Both the position numbers and the translations under genes were made by a program. Below are positions 1,706 through 50,925 of a stretch of DNA of 64,000 nt, piece after piece. Position 1 is the stretch's first letter. Each line of letters starts with the position of its first letter. The stretch lies in the IMG/VR virus record IMGVR_UViG_3300029258_004290, positions 1-64,000 of that record. One strand, given 5' to 3'. This stretch comes from a virus. Under the pieces are notes generated by a model. That model searched no databases and was not told the origin of the DNA. It saw only the letters and a program-made list of their open reading frames with translations.

Positions 1706-1731
1706 CCCGCGCACCCGAGCCCCAAGACCAT

Positions 1732-1766: not shown

Positions 1767-1789
1767 AGGGGCGGAATACTGGAGGAAAC

Positions 1790-2374: not shown

Positions 2375-2375
2375 C

Positions 2376-3416: not shown

Positions 3417-3425
3417 GGAAGACCG

Positions 3426-4436: not shown

Positions 4437-4497
4437 CGAGAGCCAACCCTAAAGGGCCCTTAGGAATATTGGGGCCCCCAAATTCCATAGGGGGCGG

Positions 4498-32319: not shown

Positions 32320-32701
32320 CACCGCGCTGTCGCTGAGGGCGACGCTGCGCAAGGCGAAGGCGATCGGGGGCGGGCGGTTCGGCCTCGTCCGGCAGAAGAG
32401 GACGATCTCCCGCGCCGGGGGGACGTTCCAGACGACCGTCTACGTCCGCCCGGACAGGAAGGAGGCGAGGGCGATCAAGCCGGCGAAGGCCAGCGGCGCA
32501 CCCGGGGTCGCGGCGCAAGCGAAGTCTGACGCGCTGAAGACGCAGAGGGCCCGCAAGGAGCGCTTCGACAAGGTGTACTCCGAGTACAACCAGGCGCTGG
32601 CGAAGCTGAGGCCGACGGACAAGACGGCCGCGGCGGAGACGCTCCGCGCCATGCACCGGGGCCTGCAGCTGGCGAAGAACATCCTAGAGGGAGGCGGCTG
32701 A
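32303..32701 (+). CDS. tagged putative internal head protein D
   Basis: IDTALSLRATLRKA-...GLVRQKRTISRAGGTFQTTVYVRP. Confidence 0.7.
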   Translation: MSAGIDTALSLRATLRKAKAIGGGRFGLVRQKRTISRAGGTFQTTVYVRPDRKEARAIKPAKASGAPGVAAQAKSDALKTQRARKERFDKVYSEYNQALAKLRPTDKTAAAETLRAMHRGLQLAKNILEGGG

Positions 32702-34539
32702 TGAGCATCGAGAGGGAGCTGATCCGGCGCGACGCGCTGCGGAAGGCCCGCCGGGGCTGCGGCGCGGGGAACGCCGTCGCCGGCAGGGGCGGCAGGCCGC
32801 TGACCGAGGAGGAGCGCCGCAGGCGCCACAAGCGCCTGACCGGCGAGGACGAGCCGCCCCCGCGCGGGGCCGGCCGCCGCGAGGGGCTGAGGAAGGCGAG
32901 GGGCCGCGAGGGCCTCACGCCGCAGAAGAAGACCGTCACCAGGGGCGGCAGGACCTTCCAAACGACCGTGTACGTTCGCTCGGGTGAGAAGCCGGCCGGC
33001 GACGGGGGCAAGAAGGACAAGGCCGCCAGGGAAAAGGCCGGCTACGTGTTCCGCAACCGCGCCGCGCGGAGGATCTTCAGCCGAATGGAGAAGTTCGCCC
33101 CGGACCCGTTCGGCAACAAGGCGGACCGCGCGGCGTGGGACGCGGCGGAGAAGGCCTGGGTCGACGCCACGGTCGCCGGGGCCACCAAGACCCCGGCCGA
33201 CGACGCGGCGGTCGCGGCCGCCAAGAAAGCGCGCGCCGCGCACGCCGGCGAGGAGTTCAAGGAGAAGGGCGCGCGGGAGATGAAGTTGTCCGCGGAGGGA
33301 AAGACCGGCGTGAAGCAGGGCGAGGCGGCGGAACCGGCAAAGTGGTCCACGGCGGGGGTCGCCAGGGCCGCCGCGAGGGACGCGGCCAGGAAGATGCTCG
33401 CCGGGGCCAAGGCGGGCCCAAAGGAGTCCGGCGCGGAGGCGGCCGGGCGCCGGGACAGGGAGGCCGAGGCCCTGGCGAAGAAGATCGAGGGCGCGGTCGC
33501 CGCCGAGATCAAGGGCCTGGACCCGAAGAAGTCCGCGACGCTGAGCGCGGCGATGCGCGTCGCCAGGGCGGAGGCGGTCCGGGAGTCCGGCGGCGTCGCC
33601 AGCGCCTCGCAGGCGCGGGACGAGATCGATGACCCCTTCGTGACGGAGGTCAGCCAGGAGATGGGCCTCGAGGTTATGTCCATCCTGGGCATTGAGGAGC
33701 CGGCCGGGAAGTCGTTCGACGAGGCGTACGCCGCCGGCCACAACGCCTACGTCGCGGCGAGGATGGCCGGGCGGTCTGTGAAGCAGGCCGAGGGGGACGC
33801 CGTGTCCGCCGCCGCCGCCATGGCGGAGCGGATGAAGGAGGAGGACCCCTACGACGAGTTCCGGGAGCGGCGGGTCGCCGAGGCGCAGGCGCGGGCGAAA
33901 GGGAAGGCCGGCGGGCCGAAAGCCGCGGCCAGCAAGAAGAAGATGGAAGGCATGACCGTCGGCGAGTGGATGTCCGAGGGCCGCCCGCGGCGCCCGTCGC
34001 CCAGGAAGAGGGGCCCGGCCGCGCCGTGGCTCGGGCCCGCGGAGAAGTCCACGGCCATCGGGCGTGAGCTCGGCCGCAGGGAGGCCCCAAAGGGCGGAAG
34101 GGCCCCATCCAAGGAGAAGGGGACCTATGAGGAAAGGATGCACGCGAAGTTCACGGGCGCGCTCCCGAGGGACGAGCGGCGGGCCGAGTACTACAAGAAG
34201 AACATCAACCGCCTCAAGAATCTGTCGGCGAAGGGCAACGAGACGGCGTGGGAGACGGTCGCCGACATGGAGCTGGACAGGGCCTTCGGCTTCCCGAAGG
34301 GTGTGACCATGCGGATCAGGAAGACCGGCAAGGGCTGGTTCGCCGTCGCGGACGCCACGCGCGTCTCCACCTACAACAAGACGCCGGAGGGGGCGCTCGG
34401 CAGCGCGCTGCATTGGCGGAAGATCGGCCGGACGGAGTATGGCAAGAAGAGGCCAGAGGCCAGGAAGTCCACGGCCATCGGGCGCGAGCTCGGCCGCAGG
34501 GAGGCCCTGCGCAAGGCCAGGCTGAGGGGGCTGATATGA
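32701..34539 (+). CDS. tagged putative internal head protein E (multi-module)
   Basis: IERELIRRDALRKA; EGLRKA-RGREGLTPQKKTVTRGGRTFQTTVYVRS; internal KSTAIGRELGRREA twice. Confidence 0.7.
   Translation: MSIERELIRRDALRKARRGCGAGNAVAGRGGRPLTEEERRRRHKRLTGEDEPPPRGAGRREGLRKARGREGLTPQKKTVTRGGRTFQTTVYVRSGEKPAGDGGKKDKAAREKAGYVFRNRAARRIFSRMEKFAPDPFGNKADRAAWDAAEKAWVDATVAGATKTPADDAAVAAAKKARAAHAGEEFKEKGAREMKLSAEGKTGVKQGEAAEPAKWSTAGVARAAARDAARKMLAGAKAGPKESGAEAAGRRDREAEALAKKIEGAVAAEIKGLDPKKSATLSAAMRVARAEAVRESGGVASASQARDEIDDPFVTEVSQEMGLEVMSILGIEEPAGKSFDEAYAAGHNAYVAARMAGRSVKQAEGDAVSAAAAMAERMKEEDPYDEFRERRVAEAQARAKGKAGGPKAAASKKKMEGMTVGEWMSEGRPRRPSPRKRGPAAPWLGPAEKSTAIGRELGRREAPKGGRAPSKEKGTYEERMHAKFTGALPRDERRAEYYKKNINRLKNLSAKGNETAWETVADMELDRAFGFPKGVTMRIRKTGKGWFAVADATRVSTYNKTPEGALGSALHWRKIGRTEYGKKRPEARKSTAIGRELGRREALRKARLRGLI
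34044..34507 (+). repeat. 44-bp direct repeat (34044-34087 and 34464-34507, 1 mismatch), 420-bp period
   Basis: GAAGTCCACGGCCATCGGGCG(T/C)GAGCTCGGCCGCAGGGAGGCCC at both positions. Confidence 0.9.
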
Positions 34540-35237
34540 CCGCCGACCAGGTCCGGCGCCGGCTGGCGCTTCTCGGGGAGCTGCGGAAGGCGAAGGGCCG
34601 GGCGCACGGCCGCGGCCACCTCGTCCCGCAGCAGAGGACCGTCATCCGCATGGGGAAGCAGGTGCAGACGACCGTGTGGGTGAGTCCGGGGGAGGCCGGG
34701 CCGACCGCGGAGGGCGAGGCGAAGCCGGCGGAGAAGAAGACCGGCGCCGACAAGCCGCAGGCCTCCCCGGTGTGGGAGGGTCCGGCGAAAGGGAGCGCGC
34801 AGTGGTGGGTGAGGCTCCGCCACGAGTGGGACTACTCCGGGCTCGGCCCGAGGGTCGCCGCCGTGCTCGGCAAGGTCGGGGGCGCCTCCGCCGAGGACTA
34901 CGACGCCGCGGAGGGCCGCGTCATGGAGAAGTGGTACGCGGCCTACGATGAGGAGGAGCCGAAGAAAGCGGACCCCGTGGCCATGCGCGCCGCCAGGGCG
35001 GAGGCGAAGAGGCTGGCGAAGCCCGCGCCGAAGAAGGACAAGTTCGCGGAGTGGCAGAAGGCCTCCGACAAGGCGTGGCCCACCGTCGACCGCGTCGCCA
35101 GGGACCACGGCCTGGGCAAGGAGGAGCGCGGCCGGTTCCACACGGAGCTGTCCAATGCGATCATGGAGGGGAAGCCGACCGGCCCGATCGTCGGCAAGTA
35201 CATCCCGAAGAACCCGGCCGTCCGCCACCGCTACTAG
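34536..35237 (+). CDS. tagged putative internal head protein F
   Basis: VRRRLALLGELRKA-...GHLVPQQRTVIRMGKQVQTTVWVSP. Confidence 0.7.
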   Translation: MTADQVRRRLALLGELRKAKGRAHGRGHLVPQQRTVIRMGKQVQTTVWVSPGEAGPTAEGEAKPAEKKTGADKPQASPVWEGPAKGSAQWWVRLRHEWDYSGLGPRVAAVLGKVGGASAEDYDAAEGRVMEKWYAAYDEEEPKKADPVAMRAARAEAKRLAKPAPKKDKFAEWQKASDKAWPTVDRVARDHGLGKEERGRFHTELSNAIMEGKPTGPIVGKYIPKNPAVRHRY

Positions 35238-36664: not shown

Positions 36665-36873
36665 CACAGCCTTCGGCGCCCCCTTGGGGGGATTGACCGG
36701 GGGGTAGGCATCTAGCACTGCCTCCGGGGCCCGTCCGCGGGCCCCCCTCGCCGCCGCCTCCCCGCGCCCGCCTAGGCCACGGGGACCCGGAACCCGCCGG
36801 ATCGCGGGCCGGGATGCGGGGGGCGGCGAGGAAGACCCGCGGGCCGACAGAACAAAGGAGAGAAGGGGAGAGC

Positions 36874-38502
36874 ATGGCGACCAAGAGCCTGAAGGACATA
36901 GGGAGCCCCGGCAAGCTGCTCGCGCAGCTGACCACCGGCGGCTTCGTCCCGTTCGCGGAGGGCGTGCGCCGGCGCGTGATGCGCGTCAGCTTCGCCGTCC
37001 TCGAGCGGATGGCCGACCGCAACCCGATCGCGAACGCGATCGTCAACAAGCGGTGCCAGCAGGTGCGGCCGTTCTGCCGCGTCTCGACCGACCCCGCGGA
37101 GAGGGGCTTCTCCATCCAGCCGAAGTCCGGCCTCACGCCGAAGATGAAGGAGGGGAAGAAGCCGCGGCGCATCGTCGAGCTCGAGGACTTCGTGATGAAC
37201 ACGGGGTTCGCCTACGAGCCCGACAGGGAGGACGACTTCCCGGACTTCGCGCAGATGCTGGTCCGCGACGTCCTCACCTTCGACCAGAACGCGACGGAGC
37301 TGCGCAGGACGAACGCCGGCAAGGTCTTCGACTACTGGTACATCGACCCGACGACCATCGCCCGCGCCGTCCCGATCGGGGGCGGCCAGGTGCACCACCC
37401 CTCGCCCGCGCCGGTCGGCGGGAAGGGCGCGGCATCGGCCACGCTCCGCTCCTGGATGGAGAGGGCGCGGGGCCCCAAGGGCCGGGACGTGCGCTTCGTG
37501 CAGCGCGAGCTGCAGAACAACCGGACGAAGATCACCGCGACGTTCACCGCGGAGAACATGATCTTCGACTACATGTACAAGAGGAGCCGGCAGCAGTACC
37601 GGGGCTACGGCTACTCGCCGCTCGAGCAGTGCATCGACACGGTGACCACGCTCCTGTTCGGACTCACCTACAACAAGGACCTCTTCATACGCGAGCGCCT
37701 GCCCAAGGGCTTCCTCAAGGTCATGGGCGACGTCGACGCGGCGACGCTCCGGGCGGTGAAGAACGCCTGGGTCGCGGAGATGACCGGCTACGGGGCGAAG
37801 TTCCGCGTGCCGATCATCCCCTCCGGCAAGGAGGGCGTCGGGATCGACTGGCAGGCGCTCGGCCAGTCCAACCGCGACATGGAGTACACCAAGCTCCTCC
37901 ACCTCATCATTTCCATCATGTGCGCCGTCTTCACCATCGACCCGATTGAGATCGGGATCAAGACGGACCTCGCGCCCCAGGGCCTCGGGCACTCCGGCAC
38001 TAAGCCGAAGATCGAGGAGAGCAAGGACACCGGGCTCGGCGCGCTCCTCATGTACATCGAGACCTACATGAACAAGATCCTCCACAAGGTGGACGAGGAC
38101 GTCGTCTTCAAGTTCACCGGCGTGAAGGAAGGGGACGCCAAGAAGAAGGCGGAGCTGCGGGAGATGCAGATCAAGCAGAGCCGGAGCGTCGACGACTTCC
38201 GCCGAGCCGACGGCCTCGAGCCCTACGAGGAGCTGTGGAGCAGCATCCCGCTGCGGCCCGAGATCGTGCAGCTGGTCCAGGCCGAGAAGCAGGAGCAGCA
38301 GATGGCCGCGATGGGCGGCGGGGCGCAGCCCGGCGGCGGGGAGGAACCCGCGGACGAGGGCGGGGACGGCGGCGAGGGCGGCCGGTTCTCCTGGGAGGTC
38401 GGCGAGGGGGACGCCGAGCTCGAGGGCGGGGCCGCGGAGAAGTCGCTAGCCTCCCTCGAGGACGCGCTCTTCAAGGGCGGGCCGTTGGAGGTCGTCATCT
38501 GA
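36874..38502 (+). CDS. portal protein
   Basis: AIVNKRCQQV, RDVLTFDQ, IDPTTI, GYGYSPLE, PKGFL, NRDMEY, IDPIEIG (HK97/SPO1-like portal). Confidence 0.9.
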   Translation: MATKSLKDIGSPGKLLAQLTTGGFVPFAEGVRRRVMRVSFAVLERMADRNPIANAIVNKRCQQVRPFCRVSTDPAERGFSIQPKSGLTPKMKEGKKPRRIVELEDFVMNTGFAYEPDREDDFPDFAQMLVRDVLTFDQNATELRRTNAGKVFDYWYIDPTTIARAVPIGGGQVHHPSPAPVGGKGAASATLRSWMERARGPKGRDVRFVQRELQNNRTKITATFTAENMIFDYMYKRSRQQYRGYGYSPLEQCIDTVTTLLFGLTYNKDLFIRERLPKGFLKVMGDVDAATLRAVKNAWVAEMTGYGAKFRVPIIPSGKEGVGIDWQALGQSNRDMEYTKLLHLIISIMCAVFTIDPIEIGIKTDLAPQGLGHSGTKPKIEESKDTGLGALLMYIETYMNKILHKVDEDVVFKFTGVKEGDAKKKAELREMQIKQSRSVDDFRRADGLEPYEELWSSIPLRPEIVQLVQAEKQEQQMAAMGGGAQPGGGEEPADEGGDGGEGGRFSWEVGEGDAELEGGAAEKSLASLEDALFKGGPLEVVI

Positions 38503-38503
38503 C

Positions 38504-40333
38504 ATGAGGCCCCTGACCCTCATACCCAGGCCGCGCAGCGCCCTGAGGAAGGCGTTCGGCAAGCAGGCCGACCCCGACTTCACGGTCAAGCGCTTCTCCG
38601 ACGGCAACTATCACATGAAGGTCCCCGGCAAGGGGTGGATGAAGCTCGGCAAGGACCGCGCGCGGGCGGAGGAGTTCGCCAGGAAGCGCAGGGCAGGCGG
38701 CGGCGAGAAGCCGCAGGCCAAGGTCGGCCAGACCGTCCGCATCAGGGGGAGCGGCCGCGGGTCGCTCGGCCGGGGCGTCGTGGGGAAGATCAAGGAGATA
38801 GGCCAGGGGTTCGTGCGCGTGGCGGACGAGGCGGGGCGCGTGTTCCGCGTCAAGACGCCCGCGCTCGCCCTGGCCAAGGCCGCGCCGCCCCCCGAGCCCG
38901 GGCCGTCGGGCCCCCTCGCGCTGTACAAGGCGCGGCCCGGGCTGGTGCGCCAGGCGCGCCTGGCCGCGCGGGGCGGCCGGACGTTCCGGACCCACGTGTG
39001 GGTGAGGCCCGGCGATCGCCCGGCCGCGGCGGGGGGCTCCCGCGCCGCCGCCGTCAAGGAGTGGCTGAAGAGCCGCTCCTCCCTCGAGGTCGAGACGCTG
39101 TCGCCGGCCGAGGCGGCGTCGGTCCTCAACTCCCTCGGGACGGACCCGGACCGCCTGCACGCGGCCAGGGAGCCGGCGAACGCCGCGCACGCCGTCGGCA
39201 GGATCGCCGCGTCCGCCCTCGTCCGCCGGGCCGCGGGGCAGGACCTCTCCGCATTCCGCTCCCGCCTCGAGGACCTCGAGAGGGCCACCGGCGACGCGGT
39301 GTGGAACATGGACATCCGCGAGGAGGCGACCCTCTACGACCCCTCCTCCTCCGAGGAGGACGTGGCCTACGCCATGATGGGCGCCTGGGGCAGCTCCACC
39401 AACAAGGTGGCGGCAGTGATGCTGCAGGAGGCCGCGGCGGAAGAGTTGCTGGGGGTAACCAAGTTCCGCGTCTGGCAACGGCACAACATGCCGGCGGTCA
39501 GGGACGAGGAGGCCAGGAGGCTGGAGGCCGAGGTAGTCCGCGCGCAGAAGGCCTGGCAGGTGACGCCCGCCAACACCCCCGAGTCTGCGGCGGCCTTCGA
39601 CGAGCTGGACGGGCGGAGGGCGGCGCTGCACCGCCATCAAGACGCGGCACGGGCCAGCGGCACGAGGGCCTACGTGCCCCCGGAGGTGTTCGCCAGGGCG
39701 CGCCGCGCCGTCCGCGCCATGTGGGGGCGGACCCAGGAGGAGCTCCGCACGAGGCCCCCGTGGTCCCTCGAGGCCCAGGGAAGGGAGCGGGCGTGGCGCG
39801 TGGCCTGCAACACGGCGGCGATCCGGCTGCAGGACGTCCCGGGGTCCGCCGACGTGCTGGCGCGAATGGCGACGGCCGGCTCCAACGCGGCCGCCACGAT
39901 GCGGGACTACTTCGGGGAGGTACCGGCCGACTGGTCCTCCCCGTCGGCGGAGGCCCCACGGCGGGTGCTGGCGGAGGCGCATTCGCTCATGGCCGGCGCC
40001 GTGGAGGAGGGGCGCGACCCGTTCGACGAGGAGACGTTCCGCCGGTGCGCGGCAGCCGTGGCGGAGGAGCTGACGCGGAAGCGGCCGTTGCTGCTGTATC
40101 GGGGCGTGACGCAGGACACCGTCGCCGGCAACGTCGTGGAGAGCTGGTCCACGTCGCGGAGCGTCGCCCGGCAGTTCGACGGCTACGACATCCTCGAGGA
40201 CGCCGGCGTGCCGTACGGCCGGATCCTCGCGTTCTGGGGGTCCGACAGCAAGCTGGCCAGGAACAACCTGCACCACGGGGAGAAGGAGTTCCTGCTGCTG
40301 TTTGACGACCCGGGAGAGGGCGGCCGGCCGTGA
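38504..40333 (+). CDS. tagged polyvalent head protein G with C-terminal ADP-ribosyltransferase-like domain
   Basis: LRKA plus type-2 tag; KOW/SH3-like segment; LYKA plus type-1 tag; LYRG...ESWSTS...EKE. Confidence 0.72.
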   Translation: MRPLTLIPRPRSALRKAFGKQADPDFTVKRFSDGNYHMKVPGKGWMKLGKDRARAEEFARKRRAGGGEKPQAKVGQTVRIRGSGRGSLGRGVVGKIKEIGQGFVRVADEAGRVFRVKTPALALAKAAPPPEPGPSGPLALYKARPGLVRQARLAARGGRTFRTHVWVRPGDRPAAAGGSRAAAVKEWLKSRSSLEVETLSPAEAASVLNSLGTDPDRLHAAREPANAAHAVGRIAASALVRRAAGQDLSAFRSRLEDLERATGDAVWNMDIREEATLYDPSSSEEDVAYAMMGAWGSSTNKVAAVMLQEAAAEELLGVTKFRVWQRHNMPAVRDEEARRLEAEVVRAQKAWQVTPANTPESAAAFDELDGRRAALHRHQDAARASGTRAYVPPEVFARARRAVRAMWGRTQEELRTRPPWSLEAQGRERAWRVACNTAAIRLQDVPGSADVLARMATAGSNAAATMRDYFGEVPADWSSPSAEAPRRVLAEAHSLMAGAVEEGRDPFDEETFRRCAAAVAEELTRKRPLLLYRGVTQDTVAGNVVESWSTSRSVARQFDGYDILEDAGVPYGRILAFWGSDSKLARNNLHHGEKEFLLLFDDPGEGGRP

Positions 40334-43300
40334 AGCGCCGCGCGCTCCGGGGCCTCGGCGGCCGGCGGGTGGAGGTCCTGACGCCCGAGACCGAGGCCGA
40401 CGCGGCCCGCCTCGCCTCCGCGGCGGCGGCGGGGGAGGCCGACGGCCGCGCCTCGTTCGGCGACGGGCGCCCCCTGCGCAAGGCCCGCCGCGGGATGGTG
40501 CTGGGTAGGCGCGGCCGCCTGGTCCCCGAGAAGCGGACCGTCACCCGCGGCGGCAGGACGTTCCAGCAGACGGTGTGGGTCCGGCCGGGCGAGAGGCCGA
40601 AGGCGCCGGCAACGGCGGCCGCGGTGGCAAGGGCGATCGAGCCCGTCGTGGCCGAGGTGAAGCGCATGGCCCCGAAGTGGCTGGCCTTCCGGCAGCAGGG
40701 AGAGCCCGCCTGGGGCGGCAAGCGGAAGAAGGAGACGGCCGCGGGCCTCGCCAGGTCCGCGATGCACGACTGGGACATCGGCAAGCAGGTGACGGCGATC
40801 CTCCGGAAAAGACCGAGGCTGGCGGCGGCGTTCTTCAACGACATGGAGGGCGTCAACCGCGAGCTGAAGAGGCAGACCGGGCTCGCGATGGACTACGCCC
40901 GCTTCGGCGAGATTGACCTGCTGGACACGATGAAGGCGGCGGCCGCCTCCGGTGAGAGCCTCGCCGGGTTCCGCGCGCAGGCGAAGGGGCTCGGCGAGAG
41001 GTACGACAAGGGCCGGATCATCGACAACCCGCGCTACGACCGCGGGCTGCGGTGGGTCGCCACCATGCACGACCCGACCTCGACGACCGAGGAGATCCAG
41101 CACGCGATGCTCGCGCAGTGGGAGCGTGGCGGCCTCGGGGCGAACGCGGTCACGCACCAGATCGTGCAGAGCGCGTTCGCCGGCAAGCCGGTCCGGGACG
41201 CGGGCATCCCCGACGTTATGGTGGAGAAGGCGAAGCACGCTGTCCTCGACCTGTATCGCCGGACCCAGGACGCGCTGCGCGCCAGGGGCGAGAAGAAGAT
41301 CCGCCTCTATCGCGGCGTACAGACGATGGCGGGCGGCAACATCCTCGAGAGCTGGACCCCGGACGAGGAGATGGCCACGTTCTTCGCCAACATCGGCAAG
41401 TTCAAGGGCAAGGTCCGGCGCGGGAACATCCCGGCCGCGCGCGTCCTGGCGACGTACGACACGCCGCCGGGCGAGGGCATCCTCCGCGACAATGAGCAGG
41501 AGTACATGGTCCTGACCAAGCGGCCCGACGCGTTCGGCAAGAGCATGGCGTGGATCCTGGAAAAGGCTCGAGCCGGCCTGGTGCAGCGCGAGGTCCAGGT
41601 CAAGGGGCGGCGCAGGTTCTACTTCGCGAAGCGCTGGGTGAAGGTCGGGCCGGAAGAGGACGACCTGGAGCCGATGGCGCTCTCCACCATGCCGAAGCCG
41701 GTCGGCTACATCACGCCGTCGGGGAACGTCCGCCGGCTGAGCAAGGCGGGCAGGTACGGCTGGGGCAAGGCGTCGAGGGCGCAGCTCGAGCGCTGGCGCG
41801 ACGTCATCACCGGGAAGGCTGCGCCGGAGACCGAGGCGGAGCGGCTCGGCCGCCGGGAGTACGAGGCCGGCGAGTACGGCGGCACGCCGCCGGGGTACGA
41901 GCACAAGCATGGCAAGATGCCAGACGGGAGCCCGCCGCCCGGGGACGGGAGCAGGGCTACGCCGGAGCGGATGCTCGCGGAGTGCCCGAAGATCGGCGAG
42001 GCGCTGCGGAACATGGCCGGGCCCTGGGACTACCTGGGGTCGCACGGCGACCAACGGATGTTCTTCGACGCGTACTCGGGAAAGGACGCCGTCCCGGTCG
42101 AATACCAGGACCGCTTCTGCCAGGACTACGAGTTCGCGTTCAAGACCTGGCGCGCCGCGGCCCCTGACGGGAGCCCGCGAAGGGGGATCCCGACGCCGCA
42201 CGAGCTCGTCTCCAAGCTGCCCGGGGTCAAGGGCGTGCTCGGCCGGCTGAAGGGCGCGCAGGTGAAGAAGGCGGCGAAATGGCTGTGGGACCACCTGGCG
42301 TCGGTCGCGTGGGGCAGCTTCGTCAAGGGCGTGAAGACCGTGACCGAGGCGCAGCGCGCCCAGGCCGACGCGTGGATCGCGGCCTTCAAGGACCCGGAGG
42401 GGATGGGCATCTCGTACGCCGGGGCCCGCGCGCTCGCCCTCTACTCCGACGCGTGCCACCGGGAGGCGGAGGCGCAGAGCTACACGAAGCAGCGGACGAA
42501 GCGCCTGGTCGCGGGGATGAAGAACGCGGAGGGCTACGACTTCGCCGGCAGGCAGATCACGCCGAAGGAGGCGAAGGGGATCGACGCCATGCTCGGCCGG
42601 ATAAGGGGCCTGGTGCCGAGCGCGAACCGCCTGGCCACGGCGTGGCAGCTGCGGGTCAACGTCATCGCGCTCGGGTCGATCAAGGGGCCGACGGGCCAGG
42701 GCGTCGCGGGCCAGTACTGGCCCGACCTCGGGCCGGAGGACGCCGCCGGCGAGCCGGAAACCTGGCGGAAGAGGGGCGTCAAGTCCCGCGAGCTGGACCT
42801 GGACTACAAGCACACCTACGCGGTCGCGCACGAGCTCATGCACTCGTGGGACGACGCGGCGAAGAAGGGCATCGCCGTTGACCCGGGCGCCGGCGCCCCG
42901 AAGGCCAGGGGCTCCATTGGCTGGAAGTTCCGCGAGCTGATGGGCGACGCCATGGTGGAGAACGGCACGCTCGCCCGGTGGTACCGCTTCGGCACGGACG
43001 CGGCCATACCGACGACCGCGAACGAGCGAGAGTACCGCGACGCGTCCGATAAGCTGGCCTACGCGGTCGGCGAGCCGGAGGCCTCGATCACCGCGCAGCT
43101 CGTGCGTTTCACCCACACGAAGCACGGAAGCCGCGTCAAGACCCTCGACGCCGTGAGCAAGGCGTTCCGGAAGGCTGCCACGGAGGCGGGCCTGACGGAG
43201 AGCGAGAGCGGCGTGTTCTGGAAGGACGTGCGTCACACGTGGGAGGCGCGGCGGTCGCCCTTCGCCCGGCTGGTCCGCACCAAGTACGGGACGCGCAAGG

Positions 43301-45084
43301 AGACCGTCTACGAGACCCTGCAGCGCGAGAAGAACTCCGGCGCGTACCTCTGCAGCACGGCGGAGTATACGGCGCGGTTCTTCGAGCAGTACGCCGCGTG
43401 GAAGCACCGCGGCAAGGAGATCGACGGGCCGGCCGGGTTCCTCAAGTGGGAGCGGTACCTCCGGCGGTCGCACTACTTCACCGAGGCGGAGTTCAAGGCG
43501 CTGCTCCCCCACTTCAAGGCCGCGTGCAGGGAGCGGATGGGCGAGAAGTTCCTCAAGTCGCTCCTCCGCCGGCTCACGCTGCTCCTGAAGGGCAAGGGCT
43601 TCCCGGTCGGGACCATCCGGAAGATGGCCGGCCTGTGGCACAAGAAGCTCCCGACCGGGAAGTGGTGGCCGCTGAAGAAGGACGAGGTGAAGGCGCACGA
43701 GGCCATGCTCAAGGAGAAGGGCCTCCTGAAGCCGGGCGAGGAGCAGAAGCCGCGCAGGCGGAAGAAGAAGGGCGAGGCGCAGGACAAGGCGCCGCCGCCC
43801 CCGCCGGGGCCGGTCGGCGAGATGGCCGCCGCGATCGTGAAGAACAACCCGAGCGCCGGCAGGATCAAGCCGACGCCGGGGGCGACGTCCCAGAACTACG
43901 CCGTCCCCTACGACTACGGCCAGCTCCTCGCCGAGTACACGAAGGACGACCCGGACCTCGCGGCGTCCGTGCTCAACGACCTCGAAGGGACGATGCGCGC
44001 CATCGCCCAGGCGTCGGGCGGCGTGAGCCCCCCGAACAGCGGCGCCTTCGCCGCGCTTCTCAACCGCATCACCGACTCAAACCTGCAGGCGATGCTGCTG
44101 GCCGCCCACAAGGGCGGGAAGTCGCTCGCCGGCCTCCGGGCGAAGATGCCGGCGTACGCGAAGCTCACCGGCAACAAAGAGTGGGACCTGCAGCGGAGGG
44201 AGTGGGCGACGTGGCCCGACCCGATGTCATCCAGGCAGGACGTCCACTACGCCATGCTCGGCGCCTGGGGCTCTAGCTCCGGGAAGCCGGGCGCGGTGCT
44301 GCTGCAGCAGACGGTCGGCGAGGTGCTCCTCGGGCGGAAGCCGTTCATCTGGCAGCACCTCGTGGCGAAGAAGGGCAAGGGCGGCAAGTTCCCCATCCAC
44401 CCGAAGGTGCGCGAGACCGCGAAGGACGCGGTGCGCTGGCTGTACGCGCAGACGCAGCGGAGGCTCAAGGAGGTCGATGACATCAAGACGCTCCAGGACC
44501 TGGACTACAGGGGCAAGGACGCCGCCGCCCTGATGGACGCGGTCGGCGCGGAGCTCACGAGGGACATGCCGCCCGGCGACGCCAAAACCAAGCGCCTGGA
44601 GATCTACGCCGAGGTCGCCAAGTCGCTGCCGCGGGAGTACCCGACCTTCTTCGTATCCGAGCAGAACACCGTGCAGGTCATGCAGGCGATCGTGGCGATC
44701 GCCGCGGAACCGCTCAAGGCGGCCGGCCTGGACCAGCCGTACGGCATCGAAGTGACCGTCAGGAACGCGCTCAGGAAGGCCATGAAGGGGACGGCGGCGA
44801 AGGCCGGGTCGAAGGACAGGCTGGTCCTGTTCCGCGGCGTCAAGGCCCCGACCGTCGCGCGCAACGCCGTCGAAAGCTGGACCCGCCGCAAGTCCACCGC
44901 CGACAGCTTCGACCACCACAAGGTGTTCCGCGAGGAGGTCCCGCTCTCGCAGATCCTTGCGTTCCCCAAGACCGACAGCAAGCTCGCGGCGAACGAGGGC
45001 AAGTACGGAGAGGACGAGTTCCTCCTCCTAGCCACACCACCGCTCGAGCACCTGGCCACGCAGGCCAAGGAGGCGCACTCATGA
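40330..45084 (+). CDS. large polyvalent head protein H: ART-like + zincin metallopeptidase-like + ART-like
   Basis: LYRG/ESWT/EQE (41308-41502); HELMH (42829-42843) with downstream EYTARFFEQY; LFRG/ESWT/EDE (44830-45018); each module preceded by a K|A/S/G site and a tag. Confidence 0.75.
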   Translation: MKRRALRGLGGRRVEVLTPETEADAARLASAAAAGEADGRASFGDGRPLRKARRGMVLGRRGRLVPEKRTVTRGGRTFQQTVWVRPGERPKAPATAAAVARAIEPVVAEVKRMAPKWLAFRQQGEPAWGGKRKKETAAGLARSAMHDWDIGKQVTAILRKRPRLAAAFFNDMEGVNRELKRQTGLAMDYARFGEIDLLDTMKAAAASGESLAGFRAQAKGLGERYDKGRIIDNPRYDRGLRWVATMHDPTSTTEEIQHAMLAQWERGGLGANAVTHQIVQSAFAGKPVRDAGIPDVMVEKAKHAVLDLYRRTQDALRARGEKKIRLYRGVQTMAGGNILESWTPDEEMATFFANIGKFKGKVRRGNIPAARVLATYDTPPGEGILRDNEQEYMVLTKRPDAFGKSMAWILEKARAGLVQREVQVKGRRRFYFAKRWVKVGPEEDDLEPMALSTMPKPVGYITPSGNVRRLSKAGRYGWGKASRAQLERWRDVITGKAAPETEAERLGRREYEAGEYGGTPPGYEHKHGKMPDGSPPPGDGSRATPERMLAECPKIGEALRNMAGPWDYLGSHGDQRMFFDAYSGKDAVPVEYQDRFCQDYEFAFKTWRAAAPDGSPRRGIPTPHELVSKLPGVKGVLGRLKGAQVKKAAKWLWDHLASVAWGSFVKGVKTVTEAQRAQADAWIAAFKDPEGMGISYAGARALALYSDACHREAEAQSYTKQRTKRLVAGMKNAEGYDFAGRQITPKEAKGIDAMLGRIRGLVPSANRLATAWQLRVNVIALGSIKGPTGQGVAGQYWPDLGPEDAAGEPETWRKRGVKSRELDLDYKHTYAVAHELMHSWDDAAKKGIAVDPGAGAPKARGSIGWKFRELMGDAMVENGTLARWYRFGTDAAIPTTANEREYRDASDKLAYAVGEPEASITAQLVRFTHTKHGSRVKTLDAVSKAFRKAATEAGLTESESGVFWKDVRHTWEARRSPFARLVRTKYGTRKETVYETLQREKNSGAYLCSTAEYTARFFEQYAAWKHRGKEIDGPAGFLKWERYLRRSHYFTEAEFKALLPHFKAACRERMGEKFLKSLLRRLTLLLKGKGFPVGTIRKMAGLWHKKLPTGKWWPLKKDEVKAHEAMLKEKGLLKPGEEQKPRRRKKKGEAQDKAPPPPPGPVGEMAAAIVKNNPSAGRIKPTPGATSQNYAVPYDYGQLLAEYTKDDPDLAASVLNDLEGTMRAIAQASGGVSPPNSGAFAALLNRITDSNLQAMLLAAHKGGKSLAGLRAKMPAYAKLTGNKEWDLQRREWATWPDPMSSRQDVHYAMLGAWGSSSGKPGAVLLQQTVGEVLLGRKPFIWQHLVAKKGKGGKFPIHPKVRETAKDAVRWLYAQTQRRLKEVDDIKTLQDLDYRGKDAAALMDAVGAELTRDMPPGDAKTKRLEIYAEVAKSLPREYPTFFVSEQNTVQVMQAIVAIAAEPLKAAGLDQPYGIEVTVRNALRKAMKGTAAKAGSKDRLVLFRGVKAPTVARNAVESWTRRKSTADSFDHHKVFREEVPLSQILAFPKTDSKLAANEGKYGEDEFLLLATPPLEHLATQAKEAHS

Positions 45085-45725
45085 GGCTCATAGTCTTCAC
45101 CAAGGCGAAGAAGGAGACCGCCCCCTCGTCCCGGCCGCCGAAGGGCTGGTGGGAGAGGGTCACGGCCGCTCTCGGGGGGGAGAAGGGCGTCAAGTCGGTC
45201 CGCCGCCTCGCCGGCTGGATTTGGTACCACGGGATCAAGACCGGCAAGGGCCGCCAGGAGCGGCGGAAGGCCGAGGGGAAGACGTACCGGTGGCGCGAGG
45301 GCGAGAAGAAGAAGGGCACCAGGAAGTCCCTGGCCGCGGTCTTCTCGCCGTCCGCGATGCGTAAGTCCCGTGTCGGCGAGGAGGACTTCGGCAAGAAGTT
45401 CGCGGCCCTGGTCAAGAAGGGCGACCTGTCCGACGAGACGTTCCACGCCTGGGCCAAGCGCCAGGGCTGGGACGAGCACCGGGCCGAGGAGGCCGCGTAC
45501 CGGATGCTCGCGTCCTTCCTGGGTGGCGGACTCGCCAGGAAGAAGGGCTTCACCGAGAAGGACGCCGACCCGAAGGAGCTCCGCCTGGGCGTCAAGGTCG
45601 AGATGGAGCACACCAACTCCAGGTGGATCGCGAAGCGCATCGCGCTCGACCACCTGGCCGAGAACCCGCGGTACTACTCCGAGGTCCTCCTGCCGGCCGA
45701 GAAGAGGGCGGGGTCAGCGCACTGA
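45081..45725 (+). CDS. putative head protein with DUF5661-like C-terminal domain
   Basis: DPKELRLGVKVEMEHT...AKRIALDHLAENPRYY; FTKA, TRKS and MRKS sites. Confidence 0.6.
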   Translation: MRLIVFTKAKKETAPSSRPPKGWWERVTAALGGEKGVKSVRRLAGWIWYHGIKTGKGRQERRKAEGKTYRWREGEKKKGTRKSLAAVFSPSAMRKSRVGEEDFGKKFAALVKKGDLSDETFHAWAKRQGWDEHRAEEAAYRMLASFLGGGLARKKGFTEKDADPKELRLGVKVEMEHTNSRWIAKRIALDHLAENPRYYSEVLLPAEKRAGSAH

Positions 45726-46214: not shown

Positions 46215-47309
46215 ATGGGGAAGGAGAGGGAGCTGACGCTCCGCGTCCGCCTGGACGGCGACGACGGGGAGCGGCGCGCCAGGCTCGCCAGGGGCGTGGC
46301 CGTCATGGCCAAGGCGCTCCGGACGCGGGCCAAGATTAGCGACGGCGACCCGCAGGCGCACCAGAAGGAGGTGCCCCTGCCGGTCGTCGCGGAGGTCGAG
46401 GAGGAGTTCAAGCGGCTCGGGCACGCGATCGGTCAGGAGCTCGCGGTCCTGGTGGCGAGGCACACGGGCCTGCTGTCCAAGGCTGCGGCCCCGTTCAGGC
46501 TGGGGACGAGGGTCTTCGTCGACCCGGCGACCGGCAAGCCGCTCACCCAGCGGCAGTGGAACCGCCTGACCAGGGCGATCGACGGCTACATCAAGCAGAG
46601 GATCGGCGGCGCGGCCGAGCGCCTGGTCGCGCGGCAGACGGCGCTCGGGGCCATCACGCAGCGGCTCGAGGCGCGCGGCCAGGACCCGGAGGCGCTGAAG
46701 CTGGCGGACATCCGGCAGCCGCTGCCCGCGTCCGCGAAGGCCGCGTCCGCCATCTTCAAGGAGGCGGCGCTGGCGGCGCGGCCCGCGTTCAACACCGAGC
46801 GGACGGCGCAGTACGTGACCTCCGCCTCGGAGAAGATGCGGAACGACATCAAGCGCGTCATCAACGACGGTCTGTCGCAGCGGAAGGGCCGGGGCCAGAT
46901 GGCCCAGGAGCTCCTCGAGCTGCGGGGCAAGTGGAACCGGGACTGGGACCGGATCGTCGAGACCGAGAGCCAGGACGCCTTCAACGACGGGTACCTGGCC
47001 TCGGAGCTCGACCAGGCCGACCCCGGGGAACCGGTCTACATGGTCGGGAAGGGGGCGGCGAACGCCTGCCCGGTCTGCCGGCGGGACGTCGTCGGCCGGG
47101 TGGTGCGGCTCCTGCCCGGCCCCCCGGAGGGCGGAGGGGAGAAGATTCGCGACCCGCACACGGACACGGCCATCTGGCCCGGGAAGTCGAGCGTCGGGCA
47201 CGGGGCGAAGGAGTCGTACGCCGTCATCACGCGGCACCCCTGGTGCTGCTGCCGCTGGGCCAGGACCTACCCAGAGGACATCGAGTTTGAGAACACGCCG
47301 GCCCCGTAG
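46215..47309 (+). CDS. MuF / SPP1 gp7-like minor head protein
   Basis: NRDWDRIVETESQDAFNDG, ACPVC, HPWCCCRW. Confidence 0.85.
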   Translation: MGKERELTLRVRLDGDDGERRARLARGVAVMAKALRTRAKISDGDPQAHQKEVPLPVVAEVEEEFKRLGHAIGQELAVLVARHTGLLSKAAAPFRLGTRVFVDPATGKPLTQRQWNRLTRAIDGYIKQRIGGAAERLVARQTALGAITQRLEARGQDPEALKLADIRQPLPASAKAASAIFKEAALAARPAFNTERTAQYVTSASEKMRNDIKRVINDGLSQRKGRGQMAQELLELRGKWNRDWDRIVETESQDAFNDGYLASELDQADPGEPVYMVGKGAANACPVCRRDVVGRVVRLLPGPPEGGGEKIRDPHTDTAIWPGKSSVGHGAKESYAVITRHPWCCCRWARTYPEDIEFENTPAP

Positions 47310-47357: not shown

Positions 47358-47747
47358 ATGTCGAACCAATGGAAAAAGGATCATCCCGAGAAGGCGCGCG
47401 AGATTGGAAGGGCGGCGTCCGCCCGCTTTCGCGTTAAGCATCCGCGCCGGCACAAGGACCAGTACATCCGCTGGAAATACGGTATCAGTTTGAAGGAGTT
47501 TGAGACCCTGCTCAAGGCTCAGGGGTATTGCTGCGCTATTTGTGGTGGCAATCTACGTGGGCGGCGGAGAAAGAACATCGACCACGACCATGAGACCGGT
47601 GAAGTGCGCGGGGTCCTCTGCTATGCCTGTAACTTGATGCTCGGGTTTGGGCGGGATAACCCGGAAACCCTGAGGCGCGCTGCGAAATATCTCGAAGCCG
47701 AGAAAGGGTCCGTCCTCTGGCTGGTAAGGAGCGAGGCCAATGGATAA
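47358..47747 (+). mobile_element. free-standing endonuclease VII-family (HNH-like) putative homing endonuclease gene
   Basis: YGISLKEF...QGYCCAICG...[37 protein letters not shown]; visibly lower GC than flanks. Confidence 0.8.
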
Positions 47748-48612
47748 ATACGCGTATATCACTCTGCCGTCCATTCTCATTAAGGCAGATAAAAAGGAGA
47801 AGGACATCCTCTATTTGGAGGCGTCCAATCCGCAGGTTGACCAGCAAAGAGAGAAGGTGCTGCCATCCGCGCTTGAAGACGAGGCGCACAACTTCCTCAA
47901 GTCCGGCGTCATTAGCTGGGATCACCAGCACAAAATCCGTCAAGACCCGTCTTACATCATCGGGGAGCCCCTCGACGTCCGTGTCGGGAAGAAGCGCGCA
48001 ACCCTGGTGAAGGCGCGGATCTACCGGGACTGCCGGTACGGGAGGGCGGTGCTCGAGCTCGCGAAGTCCGCGTGCACCCGCCTGGGCGCCAGTATCGGCG
48101 GCTTCATTGTGAAGAGGGTCACGCAGTTCGACGCGGCCCTGAAGAAGTCCATCCCCACGATCGCGAAGATCCTGTGGGACGAGGTGGCCATCACCCATCG
48201 GGCCGTCAACGCCGCGACCGCGGCGGCCGGCGGCGGGCAGGGCGTGTCGATCACGCCCTTCGCGGAGTTCGCGAAGAGCTGGATCCTGGACGAGGCCGAG
48301 CGGGCGGAGGTCATCAAGGGCCTGACCGCCGGCTACGGGACGGACGCCGCGGCGTACGCGGGCGGCCGCGCCCTCCAGAAGGAGAGCCTCATGGGGGCGA
48401 AGGAGCCGATGGACTCGCAGCACCGCCGGCACCTGCAGGGGGCGTTCGTGGACCTGCTGCGCCACCTGTCGACCGGGCAGGTGCGGCACTACGGGGATTT
48501 GACGAGGGTGCTCCGCGCCCACGGCGCGGAGGACGCGGCGGACGAGGCCGCGAAGCTCATCGTGGAGAATAAAGACCGACTCAAGCGCATGCTACCAACC
48601 ATAAGGAGGTAA
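47740..48612 (+). CDS. prohead maturation protease
   Basis: [16 protein letters not shown] (His), LGASIGG (Ser), EVAIT..AVN; between MuF and scaffold/MCP. Confidence 0.8.
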
Positions 48613-48619: not shown

Positions 48620-49498
48620 ATGGACGTGACGAAGGAAGCCAGGGACCTGGCGCGCCTGCTCAAGTCCGCCGCGGGCGGCGAGGCCGCCGCGGAGGCCGAG
48701 GCCGAGGAGTCGCCCACGCGGGCGGCGTTCGACCAGGCCGCCGAGGAGCTCCGGAAGGCCGCGGGCCTCCCGGGTCCCGAGGACGAGGACGAGGAGACGG
48801 ACGCCGGCGACGACGACGCGGAGGAGGCCCCTGAGGCCGACGCCGACGACGAGGCAACCGAGGAGAGCGGCGAGGACGCCGCCGACGACACGGAGCCGAC
48901 CCCGGAGAACCTGAAGAAGGCCTGGGACGACTTCATGAAGAAGAAGAAGAACGGGAAGAAGAACGGGAAGAAGGGCAAGAAGGACAACGAGGACGACGAC
49001 GACGAGGAGGACGAGGCCTACAAGTCCCGCGCCGTCGCCGAGACCGTCGCCGCCGACCCGGAGGCCGAGGCGGCCATGGACATCGAGCCCTTCCTCAAGG
49101 CGCTCGTCCACGGCATCGACCGCCGGCTCGACGCGATCGAGGCGACCGTCGCCAAGGCCGCCAAGGCCCAGGAGGCGGTGTTCGCGGTCCAGAAGAGCGC
49201 GGCGGGCCTGGCCCTGTCGCACGGCGACCTGGTCCGCGAGGTCCACGAGGTCGTCTCCGCGGCCGGCGGCCAGCCCGCGGAGCGCCGCGGCAGGCTCCGC
49301 GTCGTCGAGCGCTTCGGGAAGAGCGCCGCCGAGGACGGCGCCGACTACGACCCCCAGGAGGCGAAGGCCAAGCTGCTCGAGCTCGCCAAGAGCAAGGCGC
49401 TGTCGCCGGAGCAGATCGGGGTCTGCGAGATGCGGATCAACCACGGGCAGGAGCTGCCCGCCTACTTCGCGAAGCACTTCGCCGGGTCCGGCGAGTAG
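48620..49498 (+). CDS. scaffolding-like acidic protein
   Basis: Between protease and MCP; acidic/coiled; many K|S/A sites (LLKS, LRKA, LKKA, AYKS, FLKA, VQKS, FGKS, LAKS). Confidence 0.65.
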   Translation: MDVTKEARDLARLLKSAAGGEAAAEAEAEESPTRAAFDQAAEELRKAAGLPGPEDEDEETDAGDDDAEEAPEADADDEATEESGEDAADDTEPTPENLKKAWDDFMKKKKNGKKNGKKGKKDNEDDDDEEDEAYKSRAVAETVAADPEAEAAMDIEPFLKALVHGIDRRLDAIEATVAKAAKAQEAVFAVQKSAAGLALSHGDLVREVHEVVSAAGGQPAERRGRLRVVERFGKSAAEDGADYDPQEAKAKLLELAKSKALSPEQIGVCEMRINHGQELPAYFAKHFAGSGE

Positions 49499-49533: not shown

Positions 49534-50925
49534 GTGGAAAACGCTGTTGTGGAACTTCTCGCGTCGCAGGCCGGTGACGGCTTCGCGATGGCGAACGACC
49601 TGGTGCTCGAGGACCTGCAGAAGGCCCTGACCGCCGGGTACGGCACCGACGCCGCCACCTTCACGGGCGGCCGCGCGCTCATGCCCGAGTCCCTGGACAC
49701 GACGCTCGTCTCCGTCCTGCACACGCAGGAGGAGGCCAAGCTCTTCCAGCGGCTCAAGAAGCAGCCGGTCAGCTCGACCGTGCACCAGTACGTGAAGCGG
49801 ACCGAGGTCGGGGACGACGACGGGGCGTTCGTCGCAGAGGGCGGCAACTCCCAGGAGAAGGACCAGACCCTCGCCCGCAAGATCGTCAACATGAAGTACC
49901 TGCAGACCAAGAGGCAGGCGACGATCCAGGCGGTCACGGCGAACACCATCGAGGACGCCATGGCCATCGAGCAGAACGCGGCGACCCTCTGGGTCATCCG
50001 CAACGTCGAGAAGACCCTGTTCACCGGGAACAGCTCCTTCGTGACCGAGCAGTTCGACGGGCTCGACGCGCTCCTCACCACGCACGTCCTGGACATGCGC
50101 GGCGGGGACGCGACCGGCTCGGCGTTCGAGAACAAGGTCAACGAGAGCTGCCGCCGCATCCGGGACTACTTCGGGAAGCCGAGCCTCATGCTCAGCTCGA
50201 CGATGGTCATGGAGGACATCCAGAAGCTCCTCCGCGACCGGATCCGCGTCGGCACCGGGGAGATCGTCTCCGGCAACGTCGTCTTCAACGCCTACCCGAC
50301 CAAGTTCGGGAAGCCGGAGCTCGAGGACGACGTGTTCATCAAGGAGGGGACCACGCCGGTCGCCTCCACGATCACCGCGTCCAGGCCGGGCGCGCCCACG
50401 ATCAACTCCGAGGCCGCCGGCGCCCACGCCTCCAGCGAGTTCGCCGCGGCCGACGCCGGCGCCTACTGGTACAAGGTGGTCGCGGTCAACGCCTACGGCG
50501 ACTCGACCGCCGACACCTCGTCCAGCGCCGTCACCGTCGCCTCGGGGGACCGCGTCACGCTCAACGTGACCGAGGGCTCCCCAGCCGCCACCGCGTACAA
50601 GGTCTACCGGAGCCAGAAGGGCGCGGCCACCGCGGCCGACTGCCGGTACGCCTTCACGGTCGCGCGCACCGCGGCCACCCAGGACATCTACGACACCAAC
50701 TCGTTCCTGCCGGGGACGTCGAGCGTCTACATCCTCACGATGGAGGCGCTCTACAACGGCATCGAGTGGAACCAGTTCCTCCCGATGATGAAGTTCCCCC
50801 TGTTCCCGACCGCCGCCGCGGTCTACCCGTTCCTGATGCTTCTCTTCGGCGCGCTCAACGTGAAGAAGGAAGAGCAGATGGTCCGGATCAAGAACGTGGC
50901 CTACAGCGGGATGGGGTGGTTCTAG
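49534..50925 (+). CDS. major capsid protein (SPO1/Twort-like)
   Basis: [12 protein letters not shown]...GGRAL..ESLD, STVHQY, EQFDGL; Ig/FN3-like insert YWYKVVAVNAYGDS; C-terminal VRIKNV; AAGGAGG SD. Confidence 0.9.
   Translation: MENAVVELLASQAGDGFAMANDLVLEDLQKALTAGYGTDAATFTGGRALMPESLDTTLVSVLHTQEEAKLFQRLKKQPVSSTVHQYVKRTEVGDDDGAFVAEGGNSQEKDQTLARKIVNMKYLQTKRQATIQAVTANTIEDAMAIEQNAATLWVIRNVEKTLFTGNSSFVTEQFDGLDALLTTHVLDMRGGDATGSAFENKVNESCRRIRDYFGKPSLMLSSTMVMEDIQKLLRDRIRVGTGEIVSGNVVFNAYPTKFGKPELEDDVFIKEGTTPVASTITASRPGAPTINSEAAGAHASSEFAAADAGAYWYKVVAVNAYGDSTADTSSSAVTVASGDRVTLNVTEGSPAATAYKVYRSQKGAATAADCRYAFTVARTAATQDIYDTNSFLPGTSSVYILTMEALYNGIEWNQFLPMMKFPLFPTAAAVYPFLMLLFGALNVKKEEQMVRIKNVAYSGMGWF

Follow-up and report, generated by a model that had tools for sequence, protein, structure and literature searches.

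The locus described here raises the question of how the enzymes of a phage polyvalent protein are set free from one long chain. Iyer, Burroughs, Anand, de Souza, and Aravind predicted in 2017 that polyvalent proteins are packaged, delivered together with the DNA, and proteolytically released (PMC5512222); how they give rise to active enzymes has stayed at the level of prediction ever since, and this locus offers a concrete and testable answer. The locus lies in the first 64 kb (the window) of IMG/VR record IMGVR_UViG_3300029258_004290, a complete uncultured virus record of 86,914 bp with direct terminal repeats and a GC content of 68.6%; all convincing genes of the window are on the + strand. 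The gene in question encodes P0001, a protein of 1584 amino acids (aa) that is built of three cassettes: an ADP-ribosyltransferase (ART), a region without an assigned fold followed by a zincin/LPD1 unit, and a second ART. Its parts are listed below, where structural remarks refer to AlphaFold2 (AF2) models and the tags are short basic β-hairpins of types defined further on.

40330-45084, + strand: gene of the 1584-aa polyvalent protein P0001, with a GTG start that overlaps the stop codon of the gp609 gene (GTGA)
40330-40485, + strand: N-terminal leader (aa 1-48) and L-R-K-A (aa 49-52), a candidate N-terminal processing or targeting motif
40486-40593, + strand: tag 1 (type A), basic β-hairpin, aa 53-88, with modeled strands 65-73 and 76-84
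40615-41523, + strand: module 1, helical domain (aa 96-318) and ART core (aa 323-398; R328, S341, E389, E391)
41533-41568, + strand: junction 1, F402-A413 (FGKSMAWILEKA), F-G-K-S-MAWI-L-E-K-A, in the model a helix (399-414) of low predicted local distance difference test score (pLDDT)
41569-41658, + strand: tag 1' (type A variant), aa 414-443, with hairpin 420-431 in the model
41659-42462, + strand: N-terminal region of module 2, fold unassigned
42463-43539, + strand: zincin core and LPD1-like C-terminal part of module 2, with HELMH (aa 834-838) at 42829-42843 and E1012-Y1021 at 43363-43392
43549-43593, + strand: junction 2, F1074-G1088 (FLKSLLRRLTLLLKG), F-L-K-S-LLRRLTL-L-L-K-G
43594-43686, + strand: tag 2 (type C), aa 1089-1119
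43687-45081, + strand: module 3, basic/proline-rich linker, helical domain, and ART core (R1502, S1516, E1561, E1563)

The answer that we propose, and to which we give somewhat less than an even chance, is that P0001 is packaged and cut by the prohead protease into three tagged enzymes. P0001 would be co-assembled into the procapsid by way of its leader helices and/or its tags, and an S78-like protease would then cut after lysines, at L-R-K/A, F-G-K/S, L-E-K/A, F-L-K/S, and L-L-K/G. The short leader helices would be removed and leave the head, while three hairpin-tagged proteins of ~353, 664, and 497 aa would stay inside and be ejected with the DNA, after which the ARTs would modify host targets. 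That P0001 is packaged and cleaved, which enzyme cuts it, and what the tags do are all things that we infer. An earlier sequence-only reading of this DNA had arrived at fragments of roughly 350, 660, and 500 aa, in agreement with the sizes predicted from these sites.

The open reading frame (ORF) of P0001 is real, being a single 1584-aa frame with a third-position GC content (GC3) of 0.96 vs a genome GC of 0.69; a long antisense ORF opposite to it (40183-43698) was discarded as the usual high-GC artefact. P0001 gave nothing significant against Pfam, PHROGs, NCBIfam, and PDB sequences, and the Pfam ART-PolyVal and MPTase-PolyVal models did not match it. It is also a member of a very small family. 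An exhaustive HMMER search of 1.84 billion representatives returned six relatives, a word search of 5.8 billion proteins matched P0001 to itself only, and P0001 had no tblastn match in 50,697 phage records. With relative P0002 or the ART alignment as query, scans for related loci yielded one metagenome contig (L010) and none in viral or genome collections, and a scan with the zincin alignment led to L012 (IMGVR_UViG_3300009082_000062), a sister-phage contig that encodes relative P0003. P0002 (2626 aa) and P0006 (1492 aa) begin with MuF, continue with a 2H/LigT-Acb1-like phosphoesterase and with a single zincin/LPD1 module or a pair of them, and close with an ART at the C terminus; in P0003 (2102 aa), the ART is N-terminal and the zincins number three; and P0005 is part of the L010 protein.

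The ART assignment of modules 1 and 3 comes from their motifs. Module 1 (aa 1-402) is paralogous to module 3 (aa 1075-1584), with which it aligns by BLASTP in two collinear blocks (E values of 2e-13 and 3e-06), and gp609, encoded immediately upstream, is a third copy (3e-19 and 6e-18). Arg (in LYRG), Ser (in ESW[ST]), and E-x-E are invariant in seven of seven aligned copies, taken from this phage and four metagenomic relatives; R/S/E-x-E is the triad of the R-S-E (cholera toxin–like) ADP-ribosyltransferases. Module 3 additionally has a weak Pfam DRAT match with an E value of 0.0064, which is below the cut-off. The AF2 model of aa 1-450, with a mean pLDDT of 62.5, contains the tag hairpin (aa 65-84), the helical domain (96-318), and a small β core (323-395). 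When this model was subjected to an exhaustive structural comparison (VIA), the top 50 matches contained at least 10 ART toxins aligned over aa 233-412, among them ART2.2, TreX, an ART-ARH toxin, Vis, iota-like, C2-I, ExoS, and Tre1, all with Z scores of only 4.2-5.1; Foldseek with the same model gave no match at E ≤ 0.001, just helical-repeat noise. We accept modules 1 and 3 as ARTs on their motifs, with which the weak fold agreement is consistent.

The central cassette is defined by a zincin active site. H834, E835, and H838, together with E1012 in EYTARFFEQY, are invariant across five aligned modules, and HExxH and the distal Glu are kept in all eight zincin modules of the family. LPD1 (PF18796) scores above the Pfam cut-off in P0002 (33.3 bits) and P0003 (31.1 bits), where it aligns to P0001 aa ~1000-1070; P0001 itself has no Pfam LPD1 match, and an ESM-Atlas search with module 2 finds LPD1 in 25 of the 30 nearest clusters. 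The AF2 model of module 2 has a pLDDT of 41.9 and is unusable over the N-terminal region, with aa 712-854 as its moderately confident part; the alignment was taken from whole proteins and had ragged ends, which probably contributed to the low value. In VIA, this low-confidence model is closest to anthrax lethal factor (Z score of 6.0, 118 residues aligned), followed by PPEP-2/3 and botulinum neurotoxin light chains, with Wss1 also present; the same relationship was reported for the metallopeptidases (MPTases) of polyvalent proteins (PMC5512222). Tag 1' is separated from the zincin by ~270 residues of unassigned fold, a region that P0002 and P0003 keep in their long zincin modules, so that the three cassettes of P0001 comprise at least four globular parts. 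The invariant ART triad, the invariant zincin residues, and the paralogy of modules 1 and 3 thus bear out the ART, zincin, and ART modules that the sequence-only reading had proposed. MuF is a separate gene in the window (46215-47309), whereas in P0002, P0006, and L010 it forms the N terminus of the polyvalent chain, in keeping with that reading's remark that phage polyvalent proteins combine ART and zincin domains near MuF genes. Judged by its sequence, P0001 is a phage-type polyvalent protein, since it unites ART, zincin, and ART, its relatives carry LPD1, and MuF is adjacent or fused.

The proposed cleavage concerns the joints between the cassettes. In every relative, a module ends in [G]-F-x-K-[S/A], followed by an amphipathic stretch of ~8 residues, hydrophobic-x-K-[A/G/S]-[K/R], and a basic β-hairpin; both junctions of P0001 fall at exactly the coordinates given by the sequence-only reading, and junction 2 has seven further copies in the relatives. 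K1076, K1087, and K1089 are invariant in the five-protein alignment, in which overall identity is just 23-31%, and the distance from Lys to Lys is 11 residues in eight joints. We considered that G-F-x-K-S might be the mere end of the LPD1 fold and rejected this candidate: four unrelated Bacteroidales LPD1 proteins continue with other sequence after the domain and lack the joint motif, which is not part of LPD1 there. That reading had also taken the Met residues near the joints for fossil gene starts, which does not stand; no Shine-Dalgarno sequence precedes M406, only a too-close AGGGAG precedes M1070, and a Met near a joint is unremarkable because the 1584 residues contain 38 of them.

Each cassette is headed by a hairpin tag of one of three types, namely A (GLV..K.TV.RGG..FQTTVWVRPGE), B (VWV.P..KRKGYFR.DPR.KK), and C (FP.GTIR.W.G...KKLP.G.W.). 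The tags named in the sequence-only reading are real; the tag 1 signature (LRKA + GLV..KRTVTRGGRTFQTTVWVRPGE) is found again in gp609 and in six stand-alone genes at 30468-35237, each of which consists of a short leader, L-x-K-A-[KR], and a type A tag or variant in front of cargo domains that are mutually unrelated. The tag 1' form occurs at two module starts of P0002, and tag 2 is found in P0003, at the N terminus of a stand-alone gene of the sister phage (L012 15089-16036), and twice in another ORF of that contig (L012 264-3314). L-x-K-A-[KR] is present 10 times in the proteome vs 0.8 expected, and nine of these 10 are copies of the homologous tag and thus not independent events.

Could the embedded zincin itself cut at these joints, in the head or after ejection, with the prohead protease taking no part? 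Autoproteolysis by the MPTase was proposed for polyvalent proteins by Iyer et al. in 2017, and for P1 DdrB processing takes place before packaging or in the course of it (PMC5512222). G-F-x-K-S directly follows every zincin/LPD1 module of the family, whose catalytic residues are, as noted above, retained in eight of eight copies. F-x-K-S is also present, however, behind ARTs that no zincin precedes (junction 1, and SFEKS in P0003), the stand-alone tagged genes have the L-x-K-A site without any zincin, and the motif recurs in scaffold, protease, and major capsid protein (MCP), the natural substrates of a prohead protease. With these points set against it, we regard self-cutting by the zincin as unlikely.

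The comparison that points to the prohead protease instead is with HK97, the sequence of whose capsid protein gp5 reads T-F-N-K103/S104-L-G and thus matches F-x-K-S of the P0001 joints; K103/S104 is the cleavage site of gp5 (PMC10275583). The genes that bear on this comparison make up the head module, in the order terminase, small/medium genes, β-helix, portal, gp609, P0001, DUF5661, MuF-like, endonuclease VII, protease, scaffold, and MCP.

26450-28255, + strand: large terminase, GpA_ATPase
30468-35237, + strand: block of small/medium genes after the terminase, including the six tagged genes
Between the 30468-35237 block and the portal, + strand: β-helix protein gene
36814-38502, + strand: portal, Pfam Phage_portal E value of 2e-17, PHROG 12
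38504-40333, + strand: gp609, 609 aa, the third ART paralog as a separate gene, with L-R-K-A near the N terminus, an SH3-like segment, L-Y-K-A and tag, and ART
45081-45725, + strand: DUF5661 gene, directly after P0001
46215-47309, + strand: MuF-like head morphogenesis protein, a separate gene here
47740-48612, + strand: prohead protease, PHROG 1028 "head maturation protease," E value of 2.9e-16
48620-49498, + strand: acidic scaffold-like protein
49534-50925, + strand: MCP, PHROG 752 E value of 2.8e-71, with a strong Shine-Dalgarno sequence before the GTG at 49534

In the window proteome, F-x-K-S occurs nine times vs two expected, and five of the nine are in P0001, protease, and scaffold. The longer pattern F-x-K-[SA]-hydrophobic is found seven times in cargo, protease, and scaffold (4367 aa) vs 0.7 expected, a count reached by none of 2000 shuffles, and in L012 all six occurrences are in the polyprotein, protease, and scaffold, whereas nine other ORFs have none. 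Of the 14 genes in the 30.4-50 kb block, 13 carry hydrophobic-x-K-[AS] near the N terminus, vs 14 of 82 elsewhere (Fisher P of 6e-8), and so do five of six head proteins when the paralogous tagged genes are set aside; such P values overstate independence because the motifs were picked after the sequences had been viewed and because the tag copies are paralogous.

The scaffold has L-L-K-S (48656-48667), F-L-K-A (49091-49102), and F-G-K-S (49313-49324), and LLKS, PFLK[AS]LV, and RF.KS are all kept in L012 despite an overall scaffold identity of 39%. L-Q-K-A of the MCP (aa 28-31; 49615-49626) stands immediately before a conserved segment, is kept in L012, and reads L-K-K-A in a more distant contig, L009; in HK97 gp5, K103/S104 precedes GSDADSAGSLIQP, which is the same relative place. 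For the Herelleviridae-type capsid relatives, literature searches on where the MCP is cleaved yielded no usable information. The protease has F-A-K-S (aa 177-180; 48268-48279) and V-I-K-G (aa 191-194; 48310-48321), behind which the N-terminal motif of the capsid protein is repeated, and its linker (...VIKG/LTAGYG) resembles junction 1 (AFGKSMAWILEKA); the L012 counterpart is EFKKAWIEDP...IVKA/LMAGYG, in which Lys followed by a small residue is kept and the rest has drifted.

As a separate observation, the capsid copy in the protease (aa 191-220; 48310-48400) corresponds to the N-terminal MCP segment aa 28-56 (49615-49700) with ~69% identity over 29 aa and is also present in L012. It may be the route of the protease into the shell, or a self-cleavage site.

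As for the protease, an ESM-Atlas search returns Peptidase_S78 in 26 of 30 matches with a score of 0.95, S78 structures align with template modeling scores of 0.46-0.56, and H62 and S118 are invariant in comparison with L009. An S78-like identity is a lead that derives from the PHROG 1028 match and from ESM-Atlas. The comparison of joint motif with protease type across phages was made in L012.

The sister phage on L012 shows what has become of the same cassettes in a related genome. Identity between L012 and the window is 54% for portal, 53% for MuF, 54% for protease, 39% for scaffold, and 68% for MCP. L012 has no separate gp609 gene, and P0003 follows directly after the portal; the first module of P0003 has the gp609 architecture, with an N-proximal L-x-K-A, the SH3-like RVFRV.T.AL..AK[AS], a second K-[AS]-[KR], the hairpin, and ART. 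Similarly, one 1016-aa ORF with three tags (L012 264-3314) occupies the place of separate tagged genes in the window, and the stand-alone gene at L012 15089-16036 is headed by a type C tag. The sequence-only reading had suggested checking whether relatives encode the modules as separate genes, and the two phages do differ by fusion or fission exactly at the joints. Because the gp609 architecture and the tagged genes are separate in the window and fused in L012, the cassettes are, on this comparison of sequences, autonomous units that are fused or split precisely there.

P0001 might also be a cytoplasmic multi-enzyme protein that is never packaged, its motifs being a functionless, lineage-specific linker. 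Evidence for packaging is indirect throughout, and a family of six relatives in 1.84 billion representatives is tiny. The position of P0001 between the portal and the MuF/protease/scaffold/MCP genes is nevertheless conserved in L012, MuF is fused to the relatives, and head proteins are enriched in the motif; the type A tags of the window and of L012 have an identity of 68-72% over 25 residues, whereas the attached cargo has no similarity. A protein that stays outside the head is, against this background, highly improbable.

Several side observations concern the relatives. In L010 (SDBT01038756.1, 1-5803), the MuF domain is split by an intein-like insert (NRDWRRV/CFPAGTRVLT … VVVHN/CITETS) that holds an endonuclease-like segment and a change of frame (ORFs 1-1959 and 1937-5803); the intein may be split or decayed, or else the shift of frame may stem from sequencing. 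The 2H phosphoesterase of the relatives (P0002 aa 654-763, P0006 aa 560-650, and L010 ORF aa 305-394; 2_5_RNA_ligase2, E values of 1e-12 to 1e-13) has weak similarity to Acb1, which acts against the cyclic oligonucleotide-based antiphage signaling system (anti-CBASS), and is preceded by [LF]-R-K-A-R without a hairpin tag. In L009 (IMGVR_UViG_3300049925_000122, 3-6287; MCP 29% identical), the same genomic place is taken by a protein of more than 2094 aa with ParB-like and NlpC/P60-like parts, in which NLQKA and LLIKA flank an acidic spacer between the last two domains, again without hairpin tags.

A further alternative accepts packaging and dispenses with cleavage. P0001 would be packaged and ejected intact, and the junction helices and hairpins would be uncut docking, DNA-binding, or ejection elements, resembling scaffold and protease segments because all of these bind to one and the same inner surface of the capsid. 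Much of what weighs against the proposed processing is found here. The spacing of 11 residues from Lys to Lys over an amphipathic, hydrophobic helix, seen in eight joints, fits a folded docking helix as well as an excised spacer, and P0003 terminates with GFIKS and a helix, after which nothing follows that could be released. In the protease, F-A-K-S-WIL beside the copy of the capsid N-terminal motif resembles a capsid-binding tail, and N4 virion RNA polymerase (vRNAP), which likewise has an MPTase, is packaged unprocessed (PMC5512222). To these points are added that hydrophobic-x-K-[AGS] also occurs ~8 times inside folded parts of P0001, so that accessibility would have to choose the cut sites; that the AF2 models are uninformative at both joints; that the protease has no match in Pfam, NCBIfam, or PDB sequences and was negative against HK97 gp4 by BLASTP and hhalign; that the motifs were chosen post hoc, as stated above; and that the case is known from sequence alone. 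On the other side, hydrophobic-x-K-[AS] stands 6-49 residues from the N terminus in nearly all proteins of the head block, MCP and scaffold included, which is the typical position of a propeptide; the joint motif is identical to the HK97 cleavage site; and linkage is unnecessary, because the cassettes exist as separate genes. Intact packaging is a possibility to be taken seriously, with a chance that we put well below even. Readings other than the proposed cutting by the prohead protease and the three alternatives described here have a slim chance between them.

If the proposed cutting is extended to the whole head block, a single "address-and-cut" code consisting of an amphipathic leader helix, hydrophobic-x-K/small, and a basic hairpin would mark every protein of the head interior, whether encoded by its own gene or as a bead of a polyprotein, and capsid, scaffold, and protease would mature by way of the same K/small sites. 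In that case, polyvalent proteins would be genuine viral polyproteins that an HK97-family prohead protease processes, and any enzyme could be loaded by means of the header. We offer this generalization tentatively and regard it as doubtful.

A few neighboring genes carry related features. The DUF5661 gene (45081-45725; L012 12566-12940), 51% identical between the two phages, has [FL]-x-K-A-K at residues 6-11, and its product is possibly a further cargo protein with a very short leader. An endonuclease VII gene (47358-47747; Pfam E value of 4e-24) between the MuF and protease genes has a GC3 below that of its neighbors, is missing from the corresponding position of L012, and has the look of a mobile insertion. 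Among the stand-alone tagged genes, one of 132 aa (32303-32701) has a weak LPD22 match (E value of 0.001, below the cut-off), which suggests that the separate tagged genes are domains of polyvalent proteins that have come apart. The 612-aa gene at 32701-34539 ends in GRREALRKARLRGLI and the stop codon, that is, with L-R-K-A-R and no hairpin (34470-34600), and the next gene immediately starts with its own leader, LRKAK, and tag; this end may be the remnant of a former fusion joint. The sole L-x-K-A-[KR] outside the head/cargo block is in a 125-aa gene of the tail region (56892-57269), which starts with MIFNNRLVLRKAKSG and whose product may be another processed or packaged protein.

What the locus provides is a definition of the lysine sites, a candidate protease, product sizes, and natural controls, in that cassettes separate here are fused in L012. 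If processing occurs as proposed, an HK97-type phage owns a portable header with which arbitrary cargo can be loaded into the capsid and released there, comparable to the T4 capsid-targeting sequence (CTS) of protein-delivery engineering, and the shuffling of anti-host enzymes as cassettes by phages would be explained.

How does this arrangement compare with known systems? Like the polyvalent proteins described in 2017, P0001 places several unrelated conflict enzymes (ART and zincin MPTase) and an LPD in a giant chain beside head and MuF genes. Iyer et al. credit release mainly to the embedded MPTase and describe neither a conserved joint motif nor tags for each module; unlike that set, the P0001 modules are headed by leader, K-[A/G/S], and hairpin, which they share with stand-alone genes, and the motif recurs in MCP, scaffold, and protease. 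P1 Dar proteins (DdrB and DarB) and N4 vRNAP are giant head-internal proteins with MPTase domains, as is proposed for P0001, but they lack repeated tagged cassettes and are not known to be cut into several retained enzymes.

T4 Alt, a packaged ART of which both ends are trimmed by the prohead protease gp21 (PMC9026906), is together with the SPN3US ejection proteins the nearest precedent for the proposed processing. Alt is ejected, and in Alt and the internal proteins IPI-III, as is proposed for P0001, short N-terminal peptides address the prohead core and are then removed by the prohead protease. Gp21 belongs to a different protease family and cuts after L/I-x-E, whereas the candidate sites of P0001 are after Lys, and T4 cargo consists of single-enzyme proteins, whereas P0001 is a row of beads on one chain whose basic hairpins would stay on the mature proteins. 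We therefore rejected P0001 as T4-type CTS cargo, the protease being S78-like rather than gp21-like and the conserved joint residue being Lys; P0001 resembles that system without being a member of it. In phiKZ and SPN3US, many internal head proteins bear motifs of the prohead protease and are shortened by propeptides of 20-254 residues; the ejection proteins of SPN3US lose N-terminal propeptides to this protease (PMC10052503). Unlike the system proposed here, these phages have a T4-like protease with A/S/G-x-E sites and obtain one mature protein per gene, not three enzymes.

A match at the level of the site is the removal of the delta domain in HK97 by the S78 protease gp4, where the cleaved sequence matches F-G-K-S-M, F-L-K-S-L, and F-A-K-S-W of the window and lies just upstream of the G-[ST]-D-A..G..L..P start of the mature capsid protein, as L-Q-K-A does in the window MCP. 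HK97 differs in having no packaged effector cargo, and the phage described here differs from HK97 in having a separate scaffold protein and a protease that shows no similarity to gp4, either pairwise or by profile. Polyvalent proteins, packaged ARTs, and prohead-protease trimming are thus already known. We found no paper on a joint with tags for each cassette, and the features that seem to be new are the conserved K-site joint with a tag on every cassette, the identity of this joint with the HK97 site, and its recurrence in MCP, scaffold, and protease.

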